A stretch of 7,553 nt of DNA, taken from NCBI GenBank assembly GCA_028275885.1, contig JAPWTW010000011.1:1-7553 (forward strand), written 5' to 3'. The notes beneath the pieces were generated by a model. That model worked only from the letters and a program-made list of their open reading frames with translations. It was not told the DNA's origin and searched no databases. Positions 538 to 7,553 of this stretch are shown here, piece by piece (position 1 is the stretch's first letter; each line of letters begins with the position of its first letter). This DNA comes from Candidatus Nanopusillus sp. Its GTDB lineage: Archaea > Nanobdellota > Nanobdellia > Nanobdellales > Nanobdellaceae. Both the position numbers and the translations under genes were made by a program.

Positions 538-1206
538 TTATAATTCTTTAGCCTTTAATAATGCTACCAATGTTACTGTTGGTACCACAAATATAGTTAA
601 TAAAATGAAAAATATTACTATTCCATAACTTATTGAAATTGTTAACACGTATATTATATATATAATAGCCAATATTAATGATGCAATTATTGAATATAAT
701 AGTATATATGCAAATAATATCAATGATTTTTCAAAATATATTGATAATTTATTTACTTTTCCTAAAATAGATCCATAGAATGTATATAGAAGTAATATAC
801 TCAATATTATTGATATTATAATAATTGCCCATCCAACAATTATTAATGTTGGATTATATGATATATATTTATAATTTGTTAATTCGGATAAGTTCGTATA
901 TTCAATTGGTACTGGAGTGTAATATGTACCATATAGAATAACTATTATTCCTATTGATACTAATAGATTTGGTATTAATAATGATAAGAATGATGTTTTA
1001 TAATCTGGATTAATATTTTCTCCTGTAACTTTTGTATAATACCAGGATACTACATTTGGATAGAAATATGAATATATTATTGCTCCTAATATTGGTAATG
1101 CTACAGATAAGAACCCTAGCACTGCTGATGAAATAATAAATAATATACTATCTGCAAAATTTTTTCTCATATACTCAAAAGCACTTTTATATATATCTAC
1201 TACCAT
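538..1206 (-). CDS. Polytopic membrane protein of an unrecognised family (paralog P1, 222 aa, about 5 TM segments)
   Basis: Complete ORF. It has hydrophobic segments throughout. It shares two signature blocks with 1237..1929 and 6601..7287: YPxxxxWYYxKxxxxxxPxYxxxFxSxxIPxLL and LLLYxxxGSIxGKVxKxxI. Three-way paralogy supports real coding. I do not recognise a named family. The variable loop carries an NLS sequon. Confidence 0.8.
   Translation of the reverse strand: MVVDIYKSAFEYMRKNFADSILFIISSAVLGFLSVALPILGAIIYSYFYPNVVSWYYTKVTGENINPDYKTSFLSLLIPNLLVSIGIIVILYGTYYTPVPIEYTNLSELTNYKYISYNPTLIIVGWAIIIISIILSILLLYTFYGSILGKVNKLSIYFEKSLILFAYILLYSIIASLILAIIYIIYVLTISISYGIVIFFILLTIFVVPTVTLVALLKAKEL
744..777. 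repeat. 34-nt tract, 34/34 identical to 1425..1458 (direct repeat inside the paralogous genes)
   Basis: ataatttatttacttttcctaaaatagatccata occurs at both positions. It encodes YGSILGKVNKL on the minus strand. The conserved LLL just outside the tract uses different codons in the two genes (TTA CTT CTA versus TTA TTA TTA). Confidence 0.9.
961..1044. repeat. 84-nt tract, 84/84 identical to 1681..1764 (direct repeat inside the paralogous genes)
   Basis: The base-by-base comparison is identical from taatagattt... to ...ataatacca. The tract covers exactly 28 codons, WYYTKVTGENINPDYKTSFLSLLIPNLL. The next conserved residues, S-I-G, use TCA ATA GGA in P1 and TCT ATT GGT in P2. Confidence 0.9.
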
Positions 1207-1220
1207 AAATAATAGATCTT

Positions 1221-1236
1221 AAAAAGATATAAAAAA
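1221..1236 (-). promoter_or_regulatory. T-tracts plus a TATA-like box in the 30-nt spacer between P2 and P1 (probable P2 terminator and P1 promoter)
   Basis: The minus strand reads TTTTTTATATCTTTTT directly after the P2 stop (1239..1237). TTTATATC (plus 1226..1233) is centred about 24 nt upstream of the P1 ATG at 1206. Confidence 0.4.
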
Positions 1237-1929
1237 TTACAATTCCTTAGCCTTTAGTAGTAATATTAGATTTGATGCTGGATATACAATCATTATATTT
1301 AAAATTATTACAATTATATTTCCCAATAAAGGTATTTTACCAATTATTAATAATATTATATTAGCAATAATATAAAATACAAGCAAATATACAAATAATG
1401 TTAAAGACTTCTCAGCATCTATTAATAATTTATTTACTTTTCCTAAAATAGATCCATAAATACTATATAATAATAATAACCAAACTATTACACTAGTTAT
1501 TATTATAATTATACCAACAATTATACCTAAAAGAACATATGGAAGAATATGGAAAATTAGATAAACCAACAATATTAATTGTTGTAGATTATTGATATTC
1601 AATATATTTGTAAAAGTTAATCCTAGCTGCATTAAAATACTAACTAATACTACTAATATTATAGTTATACCAATAGAAAATAATAGATTTGGTATTAATA
1701 ATGATAAGAATGATGTTTTATAATCTGGATTAATATTTTCTCCTGTAACTTTTGTATAATACCATTTAGTTAATCTTGGATAAAGATATGAAAATAAAAT
1801 TGCTCCTATTATTGGTATTAAAAATAATAAACTCCATAATATATAAAATAATATACCATATATTATACTCTCTACTATATGATCCTTTACCAAATCAATA
1901 GACTTTTTATATGTTTCTAAAAGACCCAT
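1237..1929 (-). CDS. Polytopic membrane protein of the same unrecognised family (paralog P2, 230 aa)
   Basis: Complete ORF lying in tandem with P1. It has the same C-terminal LLKAKEL and the same two signature blocks. The N-terminus, central segment and C-terminal TM regions are highly divergent from P1. A TATA-like ATTTTAAA (plus 1951..1958) sits about 25 nt upstream of the ATG at 1929 and abuts the stop of the upstream gene. Confidence 0.8.
   Translation of the reverse strand: MGLLETYKKSIDLVKDHIVESIIYGILFYILWSLLFLIPIIGAILFSYLYPRLTKWYYTKVTGENINPDYKTSFLSLLIPNLLFSIGITIILVVLVSILMQLGLTFTNILNINNLQQLILLVYLIFHILPYVLLGIIVGIIIIITSVIVWLLLLYSIYGSILGKVNKLLIDAEKSLTLFVYLLVFYIIANIILLIIGKIPLLGNIIVIILNIMIVYPASNLILLLKAKEL
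1425..1458. repeat. 34-nt tract identical to 744..777
   Basis: See 744..777. The offset between the copies is 681 nt. Confidence 0.9.
1681..1764. repeat. 84-nt tract identical to 961..1044
   Basis: See 961..1044. The offset between the copies is 720 nt. Confidence 0.9.
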
Positions 1930-1959: not shown

Positions 1960-3483
1960 TTATTTTTTTGCAAACTTTATACCCTTCTTTTCATATTCAA
2001 TAATATTCATTAATAACTCATCCTCGCTTTTATATTCTTTCTTTAATAAAAATCTTGCAGATAAATAACTTATACCTTTACCAGCATAAATAAATACAAA
2101 CTTTTTACCATAATTTCTTAATAATTCAGCAGTTATATTTAATTTTTTCTCATCTTCTAAATCTTTTTCACTTTTTGCAACGCCAAAATATTGACCTCCA
2201 CATTTTTTACATTTAAATTTTTCATTATAATCCTTTACTTTTATTTTATATTTTGTTCCACATGCCATACAAACAAATATTAATTCAGTATTTTCAATTC
2301 TTTCTTTTACCAATTTTAATACTTCTCTCCATTTATCAGAAATCAATACATCTGATACATATTCTTCCAATCCTAAAATTGCTAAAGGTGATATATTTTC
2401 TTTATCAACAATATTTACCTTTATTTTTCCTTCCTTTATTTTCTTTAATATCATCTTTAAGTTCTTTATATCCAATTTTTCAATAAATAATTCATTTAAT
2501 GTTTCCCTATATACTGGTGTATTAATTAAATGATCTAAAATTCTTCTTAAAGTAGATTTTGAATAATCAGCATCTTTTTTAATTACTCCAAATCTTTTTG
2601 CAACATGTGAAAATTTCCATAAAAATAGATCTGTATTAACTATTGCCTTCTCTAATATATTTTCAATATTATCTATATCAATATTTTCAATTACTTCCTT
2701 AATATTTTCTTTTGTAATATATCCTGCTTTTAACATTATTCTATAAGGATCTGTCTTTATCCCAACAACAATTCCATATTTTTCGGATAATATTTCAGAA
2801 ATTAATCTTGACAATGCATCATTTATTTTAGTTCCAAATGGAGAATGAATAATAAACCAATCTCTATATTGTTCAATATAAATATTATCTTTATTTGGAT
2901 AAAAATATAATTCTTGATTTTTTAGCTCATCAAAATTTAATAAATCTCTTTTTATTTCTTGTGCTTCTTGTGCAACTTCCAATGGAACAGGTAATAATTC
3001 ACCTTCCCAAGATGGTATTGCAGATTCAAAATCTTTCTCCAATCCAACCAAAATCTTATTTTTTTCAATCTTTTCAATCTTCCATGGTAAACCTCTTAAT
3101 ATAAATATTGTACCCGGATTTCCATGTTTTGCAACAAATTCTTCATGCAATATACCAATTTTTTGACCTGTTGTTATATCATATACATCATATGATTTTT
3201 CATCAGGTATCATTGAAATATTATCTAAAAAATAAAATAACCCTTTTCTTGTTTTAATCAATTTTTTATTTTCTTTATCATATATTAAAATCTTTATTGA
3301 ATCTAAGAAATTTATTATTTCTAAAAACTCTTCATATGTTAAATCTTTATATATATGGGATCTTTTTATTGTATTCCAAACAAAATCAATATCAACTTCT
3401 CCATATTCCAAAGTCATCCCTACAATTTGATTTGCTAATACATCTAAAGCATTATAATGTATTTCAGGTTTCTCAATTTTCAT
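1960..3483 (-). CDS. lhr: Stand-alone C-terminal module of an Lhr-type (large helicase-related) superfamily 2 helicase: winged-helix, domain 4 (DEAD_assoc-like) and a C-terminal zinc ribbon, with no RecA-like helicase core
   Basis: The 507-aa ORF starts MKIEKPEIHYNALDVLANQIVGMTLEYGEVDIDFVWNTIKRSHIYKDLTYEEFLEIINFL. This matches my recollection of the segment that follows RecA2 in Lhr helicases (PLDVLAQQIV...W...Y..L....F..vl..L). The downstream pattern of domain-4-like length fits as well (ISMIPDEKSYDVYDITTGQKIGILHEEFV...GTIFILRGLPWKIEKI). A CxxC-x16-CxxC zinc ribbon lies at nt 2200..2271. An in-frame TAA seven codons upstream of the ATG rules out a longer ORF. The upstream neighbour is the AOR gene, not a helicase core. 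Confidence 0.8.
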   Translation of the reverse strand: MKIEKPEIHYNALDVLANQIVGMTLEYGEVDIDFVWNTIKRSHIYKDLTYEEFLEIINFLDSIKILIYDKENKKLIKTRKGLFYFLDNISMIPDEKSYDVYDITTGQKIGILHEEFVAKHGNPGTIFILRGLPWKIEKIEKNKILVGLEKDFESAIPSWEGELLPVPLEVAQEAQEIKRDLLNFDELKNQELYFYPNKDNIYIEQYRDWFIIHSPFGTKINDALSRLISEILSEKYGIVVGIKTDPYRIMLKAGYITKENIKEVIENIDIDNIENILEKAIVNTDLFLWKFSHVAKRFGVIKKDADYSKSTLRRILDHLINTPVYRETLNELFIEKLDIKNLKMILKKIKEGKIKVNIVDKENISPLAILGLEEYVSDVLISDKWREVLKLVKERIENTELIFVCMACGTKYKIKVKDYNEKFKCKKCGGQYFGVAKSEKDLEDEKKLNITAELLRNYGKKFVFIYAGKGISYLSARFLLKKEYKSEDELLMNIIEYEKKGIKFAKK

Positions 3484-3505
3484 GATTATTATATTTATAA
3501 CTTAG

Positions 3506-3522
3506 GTTATATATAAATATGT
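3506..3522 (-). promoter_or_regulatory. Putative TATA box of the Lhr C-terminal module gene
   Basis: The minus strand reads ATATTTATATATAACC. TTTATATATA is centred about 29 nt upstream of the ATG at 3483, inside a 97-nt intergenic spacer. There is no Shine-Dalgarno sequence. Confidence 0.45.
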
Positions 3523-3580
3523 TATTGAAACCATTCTATAAAATTTTATTAATATCAGATGATTAAAATAGGGATAACTA

Positions 3581-5449
3581 TTATTTTTTTAATCCCAAAT
3601 ATTTATCTAAACTTTCTTTAAATTCCTTCCACCATTTAACATAATCCTCATATTTCTCAAATTTCCAATCATTAGAATTTAATTCTCTACACATTGTAGA
3701 TACAAGATCCATTGCCCTTTTACTTTCCCATAGAACTGGTTCTGCTTTTGCTTTTATTGAATATTCGGCAATTTCTTTATATAAATTTTTATCCAAATCC
3801 TTTTCAGTAATTTCTCTATATAATCTATCTAATACTGGTTCATAAACACCTCTATAAAATCTGCATATTCCTAGATCTTCTATTAAAGATTCATTTATTG
3901 CCCTTCCATATGAAAATCTTGCAAAAATTTCTGGTCTTGCAAATGAATTTGAATAATCTGTCCAATATTTTCCCAAAATATACATTGGAGCAACCATTCC
4001 TGGACTCCAATATAAATTTGGGGTAATATATCCTTCATTCCCAAAGGATACATATACAACATAATCATTAAATTTATTATCCCTAATTCTTTCTTTATAT
4101 TTTTCATTTAATATTTTAGAAGATATTCTTATCCCCTTTTCAGATATTAAATATAATATTTCATTATTTTTCTTAATCAATCCTTCAATAATTTTTTCTG
4201 CAATTTTTGAATTTTTATATGAATCATTTTTTGGATCAAAATTCTCAAAATTAAATATTGGATATTCATTTAATCCAATTTCTCCAGGTTCTAATAATCT
4301 ATTTTCAATTAAATCAAATAACCATGAAATTAAATGTCCAATTTCAATTACATCCATTCCATATTGATCTACTAAATCTACTAATTTTAATGCCTCTTCA
4401 AATATATAATTACCAATAAATGGACCTAAAGAATGAAAAGGTTCATAATCTACTTTTTTACCTTTATATACTTTTTTACATGCTACATTACATAAATCTC
4501 CACAAGTAAACCATGATTTACTCTTTATAAATACCTCTTCCTGGAAAGGTTTCCAAAATAATTCAATAATATTATCATAATGTTTTCTCCTTAATTCTTT
4601 TGGATAATATATTGATTTATATCCAAATAAAGGTAATAATTCTTTATATAATAGGTAATTTTCTCCGAAAGTTCCTCCTGATCCTGTTTCTGGATCATAT
4701 TTATATTTCTTTGTTTTTTCATTAATAACATCTATATAACTTTTTCCAAATTTTTCTAAGAATATTTTATTTATTAATTGAAAATCATTTACTTTTTCAT
4801 ATCTATATTTATAATTTCCACCAGAAACAATACCCAAAATATTATGACCTTTAAATAATGAAGATCCGGCACCGCCTCTTCCAGAAAAATCTTCAGAACC
4901 TATTCTAAATTCTCCATTAAATATATCAAATGAAAATAAATTCCCATTATATGTATAAATAGATCCTTCTCCAACAACAACTGCTCTAGCATTATAATTT
5001 GAAAAGAAATCATTATATTTTTCTAATAAATATCTTGAAAATGCATATGCACCTTTATAATTTTTATATATATTTACATAATTTATAGGTTCAATTTTTA
5101 TATTATTTGGAGAAATAAAAATTACAGAAGGCTCTTTTGAATATCCAATAATTACAATTGCATCAATTCCAGATCCCATAAATTTATATCCAACACCACC
5201 AATTGAAGAAAAATGCAATGTTCTTGTTAATGGACTTTTAAATATTGCAACCATTCTATGAACCCCAAATAATTTCCCCCCAACAAATGGACCTAAACCA
5301 AATATAAATGGAACTGAAGGATCATAAACATCCTTTTTCCATGATTCATATTCATTATGTATTTTTACTCCTAAAGAAATAATTCCTTGAGAATCTATAT
5401 TAATAATTTTATATTCATCTTTATCTAAATTTATAAATAATACCTTCAT
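3581..5449 (-). CDS. Aldehyde:ferredoxin oxidoreductase (AOR) family tungsto/molybdopterin enzyme, possibly glyceraldehyde-3-phosphate:ferredoxin oxidoreductase (GAPOR)-like
   Basis: Several features of this 622-aa ORF are typical of the AOR family:
- an AOR_N-like N-terminus (FGLGPFVGGKLFGVHRMVAIFKSPLT)
- a pterin-binding-type glycine motif (GSEDFSGRGGAGSSLFKGHNILGIVSGG)
- a cysteine cluster, TCGDLCNVAC
- a distal cluster ligand context, EDLGICRF
- DQYGMDVIEIGHLISWLFDL.
The HFSSIGGVGY and GSEDxxxRGG contexts resemble what I recall of GAPOR homologues. I cannot assign the subfamily without an alignment. Confidence 0.88.
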   Translation of the reverse strand: MKVLFINLDKDEYKIINIDSQGIISLGVKIHNEYESWKKDVYDPSVPFIFGLGPFVGGKLFGVHRMVAIFKSPLTRTLHFSSIGGVGYKFMGSGIDAIVIIGYSKEPSVIFISPNNIKIEPINYVNIYKNYKGAYAFSRYLLEKYNDFFSNYNARAVVVGEGSIYTYNGNLFSFDIFNGEFRIGSEDFSGRGGAGSSLFKGHNILGIVSGGNYKYRYEKVNDFQLINKIFLEKFGKSYIDVINEKTKKYKYDPETGSGGTFGENYLLYKELLPLFGYKSIYYPKELRRKHYDNIIELFWKPFQEEVFIKSKSWFTCGDLCNVACKKVYKGKKVDYEPFHSLGPFIGNYIFEEALKLVDLVDQYGMDVIEIGHLISWLFDLIENRLLEPGEIGLNEYPIFNFENFDPKNDSYKNSKIAEKIIEGLIKKNNEILYLISEKGIRISSKILNEKYKERIRDNKFNDYVVYVSFGNEGYITPNLYWSPGMVAPMYILGKYWTDYSNSFARPEIFARFSYGRAINESLIEDLGICRFYRGVYEPVLDRLYREITEKDLDKNLYKEIAEYSIKAKAEPVLWESKRAMDLVSTMCRELNSNDWKFEKYEDYVKWWKEFKESLDKYLGLKK

Positions 5450-5460
5450 AAATTAAAAAA

Positions 5461-6462
5461 CTATTTTATCCCTTTTAAAATTTCCGATATTTTTTCTTTA
5501 ACATATAATCCTTTAGGCTCACCAAATGCTCTCTTTGTTATTCTACAAAAGTCACATATATCTTTTGATGTTGGCATTCCACAATATTTACATTTATTTA
5601 ATTTTATTTCTTCTTCTTTTTCATAAAATTTAATATTTCTTGCAATAGCTCTTGCCAAAGATATTTTAAATCCTGGATTTTCTTTTTCCATTTTATCTAA
5701 AAATTCTCTAATTTTTGTTTCAATTCTTTTACTACCATATTTAAATGGACATTGGTCTTCTAAATATGGAATATTTGATAATTTTACGTATAATTTTATT
5801 TCTTCTTCGGATATTTCATATAATGGTCTAATTCTTCCAACTAAAGAATCTATTTTTTCTGTTTTTGGACCTAATTTACTTATTGAATGCAAATCTTGTA
5901 AAAAGAAATTTTTAATTATATAAGGTAATAGATCATCCATATGATGTCCTAAAGCAATATAATCTACATTTAATTCATTTGCAACAACATTTAGTATATA
6001 TCTTTTTAATGAACCACATATACTACATGCAGGCCTTATATATTTTACTTTATAATTTGGTAATATTTTTGCACCCAATTTTATTAATGTTTCTGGTAAA
6101 TATGCTCCAATAATTTCTTTAGAATCCAAAATTATGAATTCAGTATTATATTCTTTACTAAAATTCTTTATAACTTCCAAAGATTTTTTAGAAAAATCAT
6201 ATATTCCCAAATTTATATGTAATCCAATTAATTCAAAACCAATTTCATCTTTTATATTTAATAATATATGATATAATGATGTACTATCTTTACCTCCAGA
6301 AACTCCTACCAATATTTTTTGTCCTTTTTTAATTAATTTATATCTTTTAATTGTTTCCAATACTCTTCTTTGTATATATTCTATATAATGATCTTTACAT
6401 AACCATAATTTTGAATATGGAATTTTTACAATTGCATCTTTTTCACAATAAAAGCATTTCAT
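5461..6462 (-). CDS. ttuA: TtuA/Ncs6-family PP-loop ATPase, a tRNA 2-thiolation (2-thiouridine synthesis) enzyme with an Fe-S site and two zinc fingers
   Basis: The ORF is 333 aa. It has an N-terminal zinc finger (CxxC...CxxH in MKCFYCEKDAIVKIPYSKLWLCKDHY) and the PP-loop SGGKDS. Candidate Fe-S ligands are PACSICGS plus QCPF. The C-terminal zinc finger is CKYCGMPTSKDICDFC. The overall layout matches the archaeal TtuA type (Pyrococcus) and is also compatible with the Ncs6/NcsA type. Confidence 0.88.
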   Translation of the reverse strand: MKCFYCEKDAIVKIPYSKLWLCKDHYIEYIQRRVLETIKRYKLIKKGQKILVGVSGGKDSTSLYHILLNIKDEIGFELIGLHINLGIYDFSKKSLEVIKNFSKEYNTEFIILDSKEIIGAYLPETLIKLGAKILPNYKVKYIRPACSICGSLKRYILNVVANELNVDYIALGHHMDDLLPYIIKNFFLQDLHSISKLGPKTEKIDSLVGRIRPLYEISEEEIKLYVKLSNIPYLEDQCPFKYGSKRIETKIREFLDKMEKENPGFKISLARAIARNIKFYEKEEEIKLNKCKYCGMPTSKDICDFCRITKRAFGEPKGLYVKEKISEILKGIK

Positions 6463-6517: not shown

Positions 6518-6565
6518 ATTTAAACAATGTAAAGCATATATTATTAAATACTCCATAATTTCAAT
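6518..6565. repeat. Intergenic direct repeat, copy A (48-nt core, 43/48 identical to 7386..7433)
   Basis: atttaaacaatGtaaagcatAtattattaaatacTccataAtttCaat aligns with atttaaacaatAtaaagcatGtattattaaatacAccataCtttGaat. Weaker similarity extends left (ttcat, with a 3-nt indel) and right (tatttggcgggtatgct versus tattgtggtggatgct). Confidence 0.85.
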
Positions 6566-6600
6566 TATATAAAATATTTGGCGGGTATGCTTCTTAATAT

Positions 6601-7287
6601 TTATGACTGCATATTCTCAATGGCAACTGCATATAAAGTATATAGATAAGGTGGATAAAATATCCCCACTAATATTTCTAATATCAACAATAATATTGGA
6701 CCAATGAGTGGTATAAATAAAAAGAAGATAATATAAAATATAAAAATTATAAAGGCTGGAATAAAACTTATTAAAAGTAAATATATAGATTTTTTGACAT
6801 AAATCTTAAATTTATCTACTTTACCAATTATACTTCCAAACAGTGTATAAAGCAATAATATGTACAATATTAAACCTATTATCATTATTATTAAACCTAT
6901 AATAATAGAATTTATTAAAAACTCATCAGATTCTATCATAAAGAAATATAAAAGAACTCCAACAATCATTATTATAAAACCAATCATTGCAACCAATAAT
7001 GGAATCATTATTGATTTAAATGCTACATCGTACTTTGGATCTACCTTTATATTAAGTTTATTATAATACCATACAACCATCTTTGGAAATAATTTAGCAT
7101 ATAAATACCAACCCAGAACAGGTATTAAAGCTATAAATGCAAGAAAGTTCATTACCACACCTACAATAAATGCCTCTAACAATTTTTGTTTATATATATC
7201 ATATGATTTAATAACATAATCTAATGCCTCCATAAATATTCCCTTATCAAATATATTTTTAAAAGAATTATTATAATAATCATTCAT
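6601..7287 (-). CDS. Polytopic membrane protein, divergent third member of the P1/P2 family (P3, 228 aa)
   Basis: Complete ORF. It retains both family blocks in diverged form (FPKMVVWYYNKLNIKVDPKYDVAFKSIMIPLL and LLLYTLFGSIIGKVDKFKIYVKKSI). The nucleotide sequence of these blocks is not conserved with P1 or P2. An alternative start at M19 (ATG at 7233) would align better with the P1 and P2 N-termini. The TATA-like GATATAAAAAAT about 28 nt upstream of 7287 favours the long form. Confidence 0.8.
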   Translation of the reverse strand: MNDYYNNSFKNIFDKGIFMEALDYVIKSYDIYKQKLLEAFIVGVVMNFLAFIALIPVLGWYLYAKLFPKMVVWYYNKLNIKVDPKYDVAFKSIMIPLLVAMIGFIIMIVGVLLYFFMIESDEFLINSIIIGLIIMIIGLILYILLLYTLFGSIIGKVDKFKIYVKKSIYLLLISFIPAFIIFIFYIIFFLFIPLIGPILLLILEILVGIFYPPYLYTLYAVAIENMQS

Positions 7288-7385: not shown

Positions 7386-7433
7386 ATTTAAACAATATAA
7401 AGCATGTATTATTAAATACACCATACTTTGAAT
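7386..7433. repeat. Intergenic direct repeat, copy B (partner of 6518..6565)
   Basis: See copy A. The offset between cores is 868 nt, so the two copies bracket the P3 gene. Confidence 0.85.
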
Positions 7434-7553
7434 ATTATAGATTTCCATTATTGTGGTGGATGCTAATCCCAATTTCTTATATTACAAATTTCAATATATT
7501 TTTTATAAAATTATTTTTAATTTTTGTTTTTTCTTTATCTGTAGTAGTTTTAT

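Follow-up and report, generated by a model that had tools for sequence, protein, structure and literature searches.

Why should two neighbouring genes that have lost most of their resemblance still carry perfectly identical stretches of DNA? The question is raised by a stretch of 7553 nucleotides (nt) from the archaeon Candidatus Nanopusillus sp. (contig JAPWTW010000011.1; guanine plus cytosine (GC) content 23.4%), the whole of which is called the window hereafter, and in which two open reading frames (ORFs) lie in tandem on the minus strand: P2, the upstream paralog of 230 amino acids (1237-1929), and P1, the downstream paralog of 222 amino acids (538-1206), whose orthologs are 75-100% identical to it. 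The longer of the two tracts, T1, occupies 961-1044 in P1 (codons 55-82) and 1681-1764 in P2, is 84 nt long and encodes WYYTKVTGENINPDYKTSFLSLLIPNLL. The shorter, T2, occupies 744-777 in P1 (codons 144-154) and 1425-1458 in P2, is 34 nt long and encodes YGSILGKVNKL. Both repeats had been reported in a preliminary description of the window; their coordinates are correct and both are maximal, no further extension being possible. Comparison with related genomes points to recurrent, short-tract and bidirectional gene conversion between P1 and P2, centred on the most conserved motifs of the two proteins, as very probably the cause, with T1 as the main conversion island and T2 as a weaker one.

P1 and P2 are 51% identical overall and 41% identical outside the tracts. 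Among the 71 degenerate codons outside the tracts that encode the same amino acid in both genes, 37 are the same codon, compared with the 40.5 expected from independent draws from the window's own codon usage. Since the observed number is about that of random expectation, synonymous sites outside the tracts are saturated. Inside the tracts, the same codon is used at all 38 degenerate positions, with a probability of 1.8e-11 when calculated from the rate outside and of 10^-8.3 when calculated from codon usage. The run-length test, a permutation of aligned sites of the type used by GENECONV and not the GENECONV program itself, gave no identical run of 84 nt in 100,000 permutations of the aligned matches (the maximum being 38), and runs of at least 34 nt in six of 100,000. 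The preliminary description had cautioned that codon choice is restricted in a genome rich in adenine and thymine and that a formal test was needed; by this test the identity of the tracts lies far beyond chance (P about 1e-8 to 1e-11). The synonymous contrasts that it had noticed in the residues flanking the tracts were recovered in the codon alignment (TCA ATA GGA versus TCT ATT GGT, and TTA CTT CTA versus TTA TTA TTA), and its lengths for the spans between the tracts, 183 nt in P1 and 222 nt in P2, are correct. Its argument that protein-level constraint alone lacks the power to explain the identity is upheld both by these codon counts and by the conversion pattern found in many genomes. The two copies in the window share a T1 haplotype to which no other T1 sampled comes closer than 2 nt.

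How old, then, is the pair? Relatives of P1 number 152 at E <= 0.01 and are annotated as Candidatus Nanopusillus and Nanobsidianus. Three groups can be distinguished among the best 120 of these 152: P1 (67-100% identity), P2 (about 50%) and a group of 53-61% identity, which consists of P1 orthologs from Nanopusillus clade B. Scans of species genomes and metagenomes yielded 52 further loci. The gene order LhrC (the stand-alone C-terminal half of the Lhr helicase), P2, P1 and surface protein is kept in 36 Nanopusillus/Nanobsidianus loci, including both N. stetteri assemblies and the closed genome of the cultured N. acidilobi, in which the orthologs of P2 and P1 were identified by exact-sequence look-up as Nps_00750 and Nps_00755. 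In the flanks of the tracts the number of synonymous substitutions per synonymous site (dS) ranges between paralogs from 0.76 to more than 1.8 or is undefined; ortholog dS is 0.2-0.5. The same gene order in 36 loci, together with the saturated paralog flanks, indicates that the duplication predates the lineages compared. Independent duplication in each lineage was considered and rejected, as the flanks diverged long ago and correspond as orthologs in every locus. The longest exact matches between P1 and P2 (20-89 nt) lie in the same two places in almost every pair.

Concerted evolution was assessed in 28 complete P2-P1 pairs, with tract sequences compiled from 31 loci. In T1, the P1 and P2 copies of the same genome differ on average by 3.29 nt, compared with 5.92 nt between P1 orthologs, 7.49 nt between P2 orthologs and 6.86 nt between paralogs of different genomes. 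The excess similarity within genomes is significant over the 28 pairs (permutation p = 5e-5) and is seen also at synonymous sites, where the paralog dS of T1 within a genome is 0.124 and the ortholog dS 0.18 (P1) and 0.245 (P2). The two T1 copies are identical in the window and in four other loci (L017, L034, L039 and L042); in the window, L017, L034 and L039 the sole nearest neighbour of each T1 is its own paralog, both copies having a private haplotype in common. The T1 copies of N. acidilobi show two differences. Of 37 variable T1 sites, 20 have at least two alleles each of which is present in both copies of some genome, and these co-segregating sites include synonymous ones, such as TTC/TTT and CTA/TTA. 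For T2 the mean difference is 1.75 nt within and 2.02 nt between genomes (p = 0.0035), and the paralog dS is 0.21. As lineage variants co-segregate in both copies, constraint is insufficient to account for the pattern, which is that expected from recurrent gene conversion.

Traces of copying are also found at the borders of the tracts. Three P2 proteins (P0094, P0096 and P0110) carry the P1-type sequence SIYFEKSLILFAY after T2, and in genomes other than that of the window exact matches run on beyond T2, reaching 74 nt in locus L025. Two other P2 proteins (P0113 and P0115) carry the P1-type YPNVVAWYY before T1, while the P1 protein P0064 carries the P2-type YPRLAKWYY in the same place. In L009, L022, L026 and L031, the match between P2 and the P1 of the same locus is confined to the 5' half of T1. 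P1-type patches in P2 and a P2-type patch in P1 indicate that conversion has operated both ways, and the lineage-specific borders imply that the ends of the patches vary.

What distinguishes T1 and T2 from the rest of the two genes is their place in the proteins. Confident AlphaFold models (predicted local distance difference test (pLDDT) 89.5 for P1 and 90.2 for P2) give both proteins the same layout, in which six membrane helices come after an amphipathic helix at the N-terminus. T1 spans the last part of transmembrane helix (TM) 2, the turn GENINPD and the first part of TM3, and T2 the last part of TM4 and a lysine-rich loop; both are predicted to be motifs of the cytoplasmic face. They are conserved motifs of the whole family, hold its invariant columns and are kept in remote relatives. 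From a gene-wide value of about 0.57, the ratio of nonsynonymous to synonymous substitution (dN/dS) falls to its lowest in the tracts, 0.26-0.28 in T1 and 0.08-0.10 in T2, and reaches 0.9-1.0 in the TM3-loop-TM4 region of P1. The central segment of P1 (778-960) encodes TM3, an exposed beta-hairpin loop (residues 96-118, with low pLDDT) and TM4; that of P2 (1459-1680) is gene-specific, is moderately conserved among P2 orthologs and ends in a helical instead of a beta-hairpin at the exposed tip. The preliminary description had called the two centres unrelated. This applies to about 40 codons of the exposed tips, which do not align; the parts in membrane helices align weakly (SIGI..., IVG and LLLY), and the six-helix layout is common to both models. 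Its proposal that the variable segment is exposed outside the cell agrees with the predicted layout and with the count of lysines and arginines, 10 in the predicted cytoplasmic segments against one outside, so that residues 96-118 of P1 are most probably extracellular. The N-L-S sequon that it had pointed out in this loop is present in the P1 of the window, but any sequon at that place occurs in only six of 28 P1 orthologs. An N-x-S/T sequon, typically N-I-S or N-I-T, occurs in the exposed centre of 22 of 28 P2 orthologs; the P2 centre of the window reads NILNINN and has none.

From these observations we infer a mechanism of homologous recombination. P2 and P1 derive from an ancient tandem duplication of a six-helix membrane protein, most of each gene having since passed synonymous saturation. 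The strongest purifying selection acts on the two motifs of the cytoplasmic turns, T1 and T2, whose DNA would thereby stay similar enough to pair, and recombination would repeatedly copy short patches between P1 and P2 in both directions, beginning in the T1 and T2 islands and ending where similarity is lost. Such copying would erase synonymous differences inside the islands and leave the flanks gene-specific, and the perfect identity over 84 and 34 nt in the window would be the state soon after a recent event in that lineage. Selection on divergent roles of P1 and P2 presumably limits the spread of the patches. Biased gene conversion is not indicated by base composition, the GC content being 21% in the tracts and 23% in the window.

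Several points weigh against this interpretation. Support from T2 is modest, as only two of its 14 variable sites co-segregate and the differences within and between genomes are close; set against orthologs of each gene, the within-genome value of 1.75 nt stands between 1.47 nt (P2) and 2.28 nt (P1). Many of the loci are related and come from few hot-spring systems, so that they are not independent, and the permutation p ignores phylogeny. The exact identity in the window is read from a single metagenome contig. Finally, in the most distant P1 orthologs codon identity is 0.86 in T1 and 0.72 in the flanks, and selection at the codon level may make a small contribution to the conservation of the tract.

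The last of these points would also be compatible with a functional element at the level of RNA or DNA, whether a fold in the messenger RNA, a small RNA, a binding site or a signal for translational pausing, that freezes the codons of both genes, as would the near likeness of the tract DNA in all genomes and in both genes, which extends to the non-preferred codons GTT, ATT and CTA. Synonymous sites in the tract do change, the ordinary ortholog dS of T1 given above lying within the range of 0.15-0.49 for the rest of the gene, and the changes occur in both copies of the same genome, a co-segregation that constraint does not predict. The tract RNA shows no stable or unusual fold on either strand (z-scores of -0.4 and +0.6), and the sole z-score of -2.2, obtained for the P1 tract with its flanks, was not reproduced in P2 (z = +0.9). 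A search of Rfam with E up to 1 gave only two chance-level matches, one of which, mir-35_2 at 746-803, overlaps T2, and no proper C/D box motifs were found by eye on either strand. Gene-wide ortholog dS is 0.32 for P1 and 0.23 for P2, and codon identity between orthologs at conserved residues is 0.72-0.91 outside and 0.86-0.92 inside the tracts. The preliminary description had proposed that conservation of the tract DNA in distant species would speak for constraint; since the sampled lineages are unsaturated at synonymous sites throughout the gene, this reasoning does not apply to them. An element of this kind is largely refuted by the co-segregating synonymous variants and is judged highly improbable. 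Still more improbable is that the perfect identity of the window was produced by an assembler that merged reads of the two copies or of co-occurring strains. The window does come from a metagenome contig (JGI 3300036346, Ga0392389_01236, 8.8 kb), repeats of 84 nt exceed many k-mer sizes, and at least one related contig looks collapsed. Against this, the same islands of near identity are present in at least 30 assemblies that are independent of one another, as well as in genomes from single cells and in the closed genome of an isolate in culture; the flanks in the window switch cleanly to gene-specific sequence with both reading frames intact; and the tract haplotype is private to the contig yet common to both copies. 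The recurrence of the same pattern in many independent assemblies and in the isolate's complete genome makes an artefact unlikely as its source.

A different role for the tracts, as crossover points of modular shuffling, would leave one fused gene (with about 720 or 681 bp deleted) or three, and would thereby vary an exposed membrane protein. Each of 117 family proteins was divided into three modules (N, centre and C), and every module was assigned to the P1 type (1) or the P2 type (2); 81 proteins are fully P1, 26 fully P2 and 10 are single-junction chimeras (seven '211' and one each of '122', '221' and '112'). The preliminary description had expected unequal crossover to collapse the pair into one chimeric gene, and such contigs do exist. 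L033, L044 and L056 carry LhrC, one P2N/P1 fusion gene and the surface protein; L045 carries LhrC and then a fusion gene, and ends about 120 nt after it, before any surface-protein gene; L055 is fused at T2; and L054 has a reciprocal P1N/P2 gene between the 3' end of a P2 and the 5' end of a P1. The source records are OGCB01002188 for L044, ERZ27249301 and ERZ27246779 for L054 and L055, and GCA_028282985.1 for L056. In L033 the 45 nt directly upstream of T1 are already of the P1 type, so that its junction lies further upstream, possibly near a conserved PILGAI patch. That these are natural alleles is favoured by the absence from the data set of any 100%-identical, pair-bearing counterpart of L044, L056 and L033, by the two 460-nt repeat copies of L054, which are 94.8% identical and thus do not represent a trivial loop through one sequence, and by the names of L054 and L055, which are those of MEGAHIT k141 contigs, a k of 141 exceeding the 84-89-nt repeat. 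Iterative-k assemblers can, however, carry over chimeric joins from small k, and all chimeras lie on short contigs (1.0-4.2 kb) from mixed-strain metagenomes, while the intact pair is found on all long contigs and in all genomes. The Lhr part, the N module and the P1 part of L045 are each 100% identical to those of L039, a pair-bearing locus whose T1 is an exact repeat of 89 nt; this is the signature of assembly collapse, and L045 is most simply explained as an artefact. Chimeric contigs are expected from unequal crossover and also from the collapse of repeats during assembly. With no centre swaps and no additional tract-bearing donors, as described below, modular shuffling is considered unlikely.

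If gene conversion is confined to the motifs, does it also move what lies between them? The preliminary description had seen in the tracts a set of handles by which a central cassette could be moved among family members, and this reading is not supported. A swapped centre ('121' or '212') was found in none of the 117 proteins, and in each of the 28 complete pairs P1 and P2 retain centres of their own type. The genome-wide count of tract-bearing members that it had proposed gave no further ones: the peptide patterns of the tracts occur at one locus in each of seven species genomes, including the complete N. acidilobi genome, no locus was found to hold more than two copies of T1 or T2, and the more distant paralog P3, described below, lacks the tracts. 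Without extra tract copies in these genomes and loci, there is no reservoir of silent cassettes.

The loop of P1 varies in another way. Between strains, no other part of P1 varies as much, and its alleles (TYYTPVP... versus ITSVSVG..., and SRPALIQVV versus SGSTLIKVE) are scattered across the trees of the flanking modules. Overall identity between loci L040 and L041 is 98.5%, and no difference separates their P1 genes over the first 87 codons; the loop then has 10 differences within 24 nt, and its allele in L041 is that of L007, a locus that is otherwise divergent. The borders of such loop patches lie inside the central segment and not at T1 or T2. As judged from these alleles, the predicted extracellular loop of P1 is exchanged between strains. 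The suggestion of surface variation made in the preliminary description thus survives in a weaker form, that of a predicted exposed loop exchanged between strains, together with putative fusion alleles, and not as a swap of cassettes between the paralogs. That the islands also act as real crossover points in nature, giving one, two or three genes, and together with the interstrain exchange of the P1 loop form a system of recombination-driven membrane-protein variation, is regarded as quite unlikely. If true, crossover and loop exchange would vary a membrane protein that is encoded beside the surface-layer gene and might matter for attachment to the host archaeon. L040 and L041 differ mainly in a few dense clusters of substitutions, which lie in the surface-protein gene (L040 5094-5154 and 5784-5838) and in the P1 loop (4224-4344), a pattern characteristic of the import of short segments by recombination or of diversifying selection acting locally.

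Concerted evolution of prokaryotic paralogs by gene conversion has been described for tufA/tufB and for the tandem mtrA-1/mtrA-2 genes of methanogens (PMC6053082, PMC4632066), and all seven archaeal cases in the former study are from methanogens. The P2-P1 pair resembles these systems in that the paralogs are far older than the species sampled, yet more alike within a genome in the converted region; in that conversion is recurrent and apparently still ongoing; and, with respect to mtrA-1/mtrA-2, in that the copies lie in tandem. It differs in that only two islands, of 84 and 34 nt, are homogenised in a gene that measures about 680 nt and is otherwise saturated, and in that the product is not a core enzyme but an uncharacterised membrane protein from a symbiont with a reduced genome. 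The arrangement also recalls pilE/pilS of Neisseria and vlsE of Borrelia, systems of antigenic variation with silent cassettes in which the variable part is moved. In both, conserved segments flank a variable segment, exposed in those systems and predicted to be so in P1 and P2; gene conversion is the mechanism there and the probable one here, and the neighbour of P2-P1 is a surface-protein gene, the organism itself living attached to a host cell. In contrast to them, P2-P1 has no silent donors, with at most two tract-bearing genes per genome, and it is the conserved motifs that are converted, the centres of P1 and P2 not being swapped. The pair is best explained by an already described type of process, ordinary gene conversion and not cassette swapping, in a setting that is new and rather clean.

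Gene conversion at this locus would mean that homologous recombination is active in, and shapes at fine scale, one of the smallest known cellular genomes. It would also provide a natural example of purifying selection on a motif and gene conversion reinforcing each other to produce islands of identity in saturated paralogs. For annotation, the repeats of 84-89 nt probably account for collapsed or chimeric gene calls in metagenome assemblies of Nanoarchaeota, so that apparent fusion proteins of the P1/P2 family should not be trusted without read support. A lineage-specific pair of six-helix proteins, with a strain-variable loop that is predicted to be exposed, beside a surface-protein gene, is a reasonable candidate for work on the contact between symbiont and host.

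The family itself is narrow. Scans of P1, P2, P3 and 23 relatives (alignment A1) with Pfam and NCBIfam placed them in no family at or near threshold, no arCOG match was found, and comparison of the P1 model with PDB structures by Foldseek gave no informative fold match (best E 0.46). DUF4013 (PF13197), the UniRef label of the ortholog P0053, likewise denotes a small multi-pass archaeal membrane protein; it was rejected, as no member of A1, including P0053, matched it above threshold with E up to 1. A profile search of 1.84 billion representative proteins retrieved 34 relatives (representatives at 50% identity), and on this evidence the family is found almost only in Nanopusillus/Nanobsidianus archaea. 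A pseudogene reading was rejected, both ORFs being intact in at least 28 genomes and the motifs having dN/dS values of 0.08-0.28. Frameshifted copies of P2 or P1 are present in L028 (about 1343-2046), L029 (1-518), L032 (about 1055-1711) and L038 (about 2737-4153) and may be due to errors of sequencing or, in some strains, to genuine decay of the gene. In Supplementary Data 1 of PMC4935971, Nps_00750 and Nps_00755 carry no proteome values, as is the case for most membrane proteins among the entries consulted, so that this lack carries no weight for or against expression. A study of single-cell diversification in Nanoarchaeota (PMC6142677) highlights other proteins, and the P2-P1 pair is not mentioned in its passages matched.

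The remaining genes of the window lie on the minus strand, with one exception. Downstream of P1, the 5' part of a gene for a cell-surface (S-layer-like) protein occupies 3-386. The preliminary description had named it an S-layer gene; all its matches to S-layer profiles are below threshold (PF05124, E = 1.1e-4; TIGR01564, E = 0.014), while its N. acidilobi ortholog, Nps_00760, is annotated as a 'predicted cell surface protein' (PMC4935971 Supplementary Data 1). Upstream of P2, LhrC (1960-3483) encodes a product of 507 amino acids with a winged helix, a DEAD/H-associated domain and a zinc ribbon, and without the helicase core. It is 94-96% conserved in four related loci (L028, L044, L045 and L056), corresponds to Nps_00745 in N. 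acidilobi, and presumably represents a split gene, as is common in Nanoarchaeota. The gene at 3581-5449 encodes a GAPOR-like aldehyde:ferredoxin oxidoreductase, which matches the archaeal GAPOR model over its full length with 425 bits against an equivalog cut-off of 1300 and is a divergent member of that family. It is followed by a TtuA-type tRNA sulfurtransferase (5461-6462) and by P3 (6601-7287), a third and more distant paralog of P1 and P2. P3 is 34% identical to P1 and keeps the motifs WYYNK... and GSIIGKVDK at the protein level, and within the window it has no identical tract in common with P1 or P2.

The exception in strand is a PMT_2-like glycosyltransferase, the start of which extends on the plus strand from 7286 to the end of the window. 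The P3 ORF starts at 7287, where its ATG overlaps the divergent ATG of the glycosyltransferase (7286) by 2 nt. All relatives (for example P0124) begin at the equivalent of Met19; the true start is probably this codon, at 7233, which would leave a spacer of about 50 nt to the glycosyltransferase. In the spacer between TtuA and P3, 54 nt at 6518-6571 are 87% identical to 7386-7439 on the plus strand, approximately codons 34-51 of the glycosyltransferase ORF; the copy is interrupted by an in-frame stop and has the appearance of a remnant left when the P3/glycosyltransferase unit was duplicated or rearranged at an earlier time.

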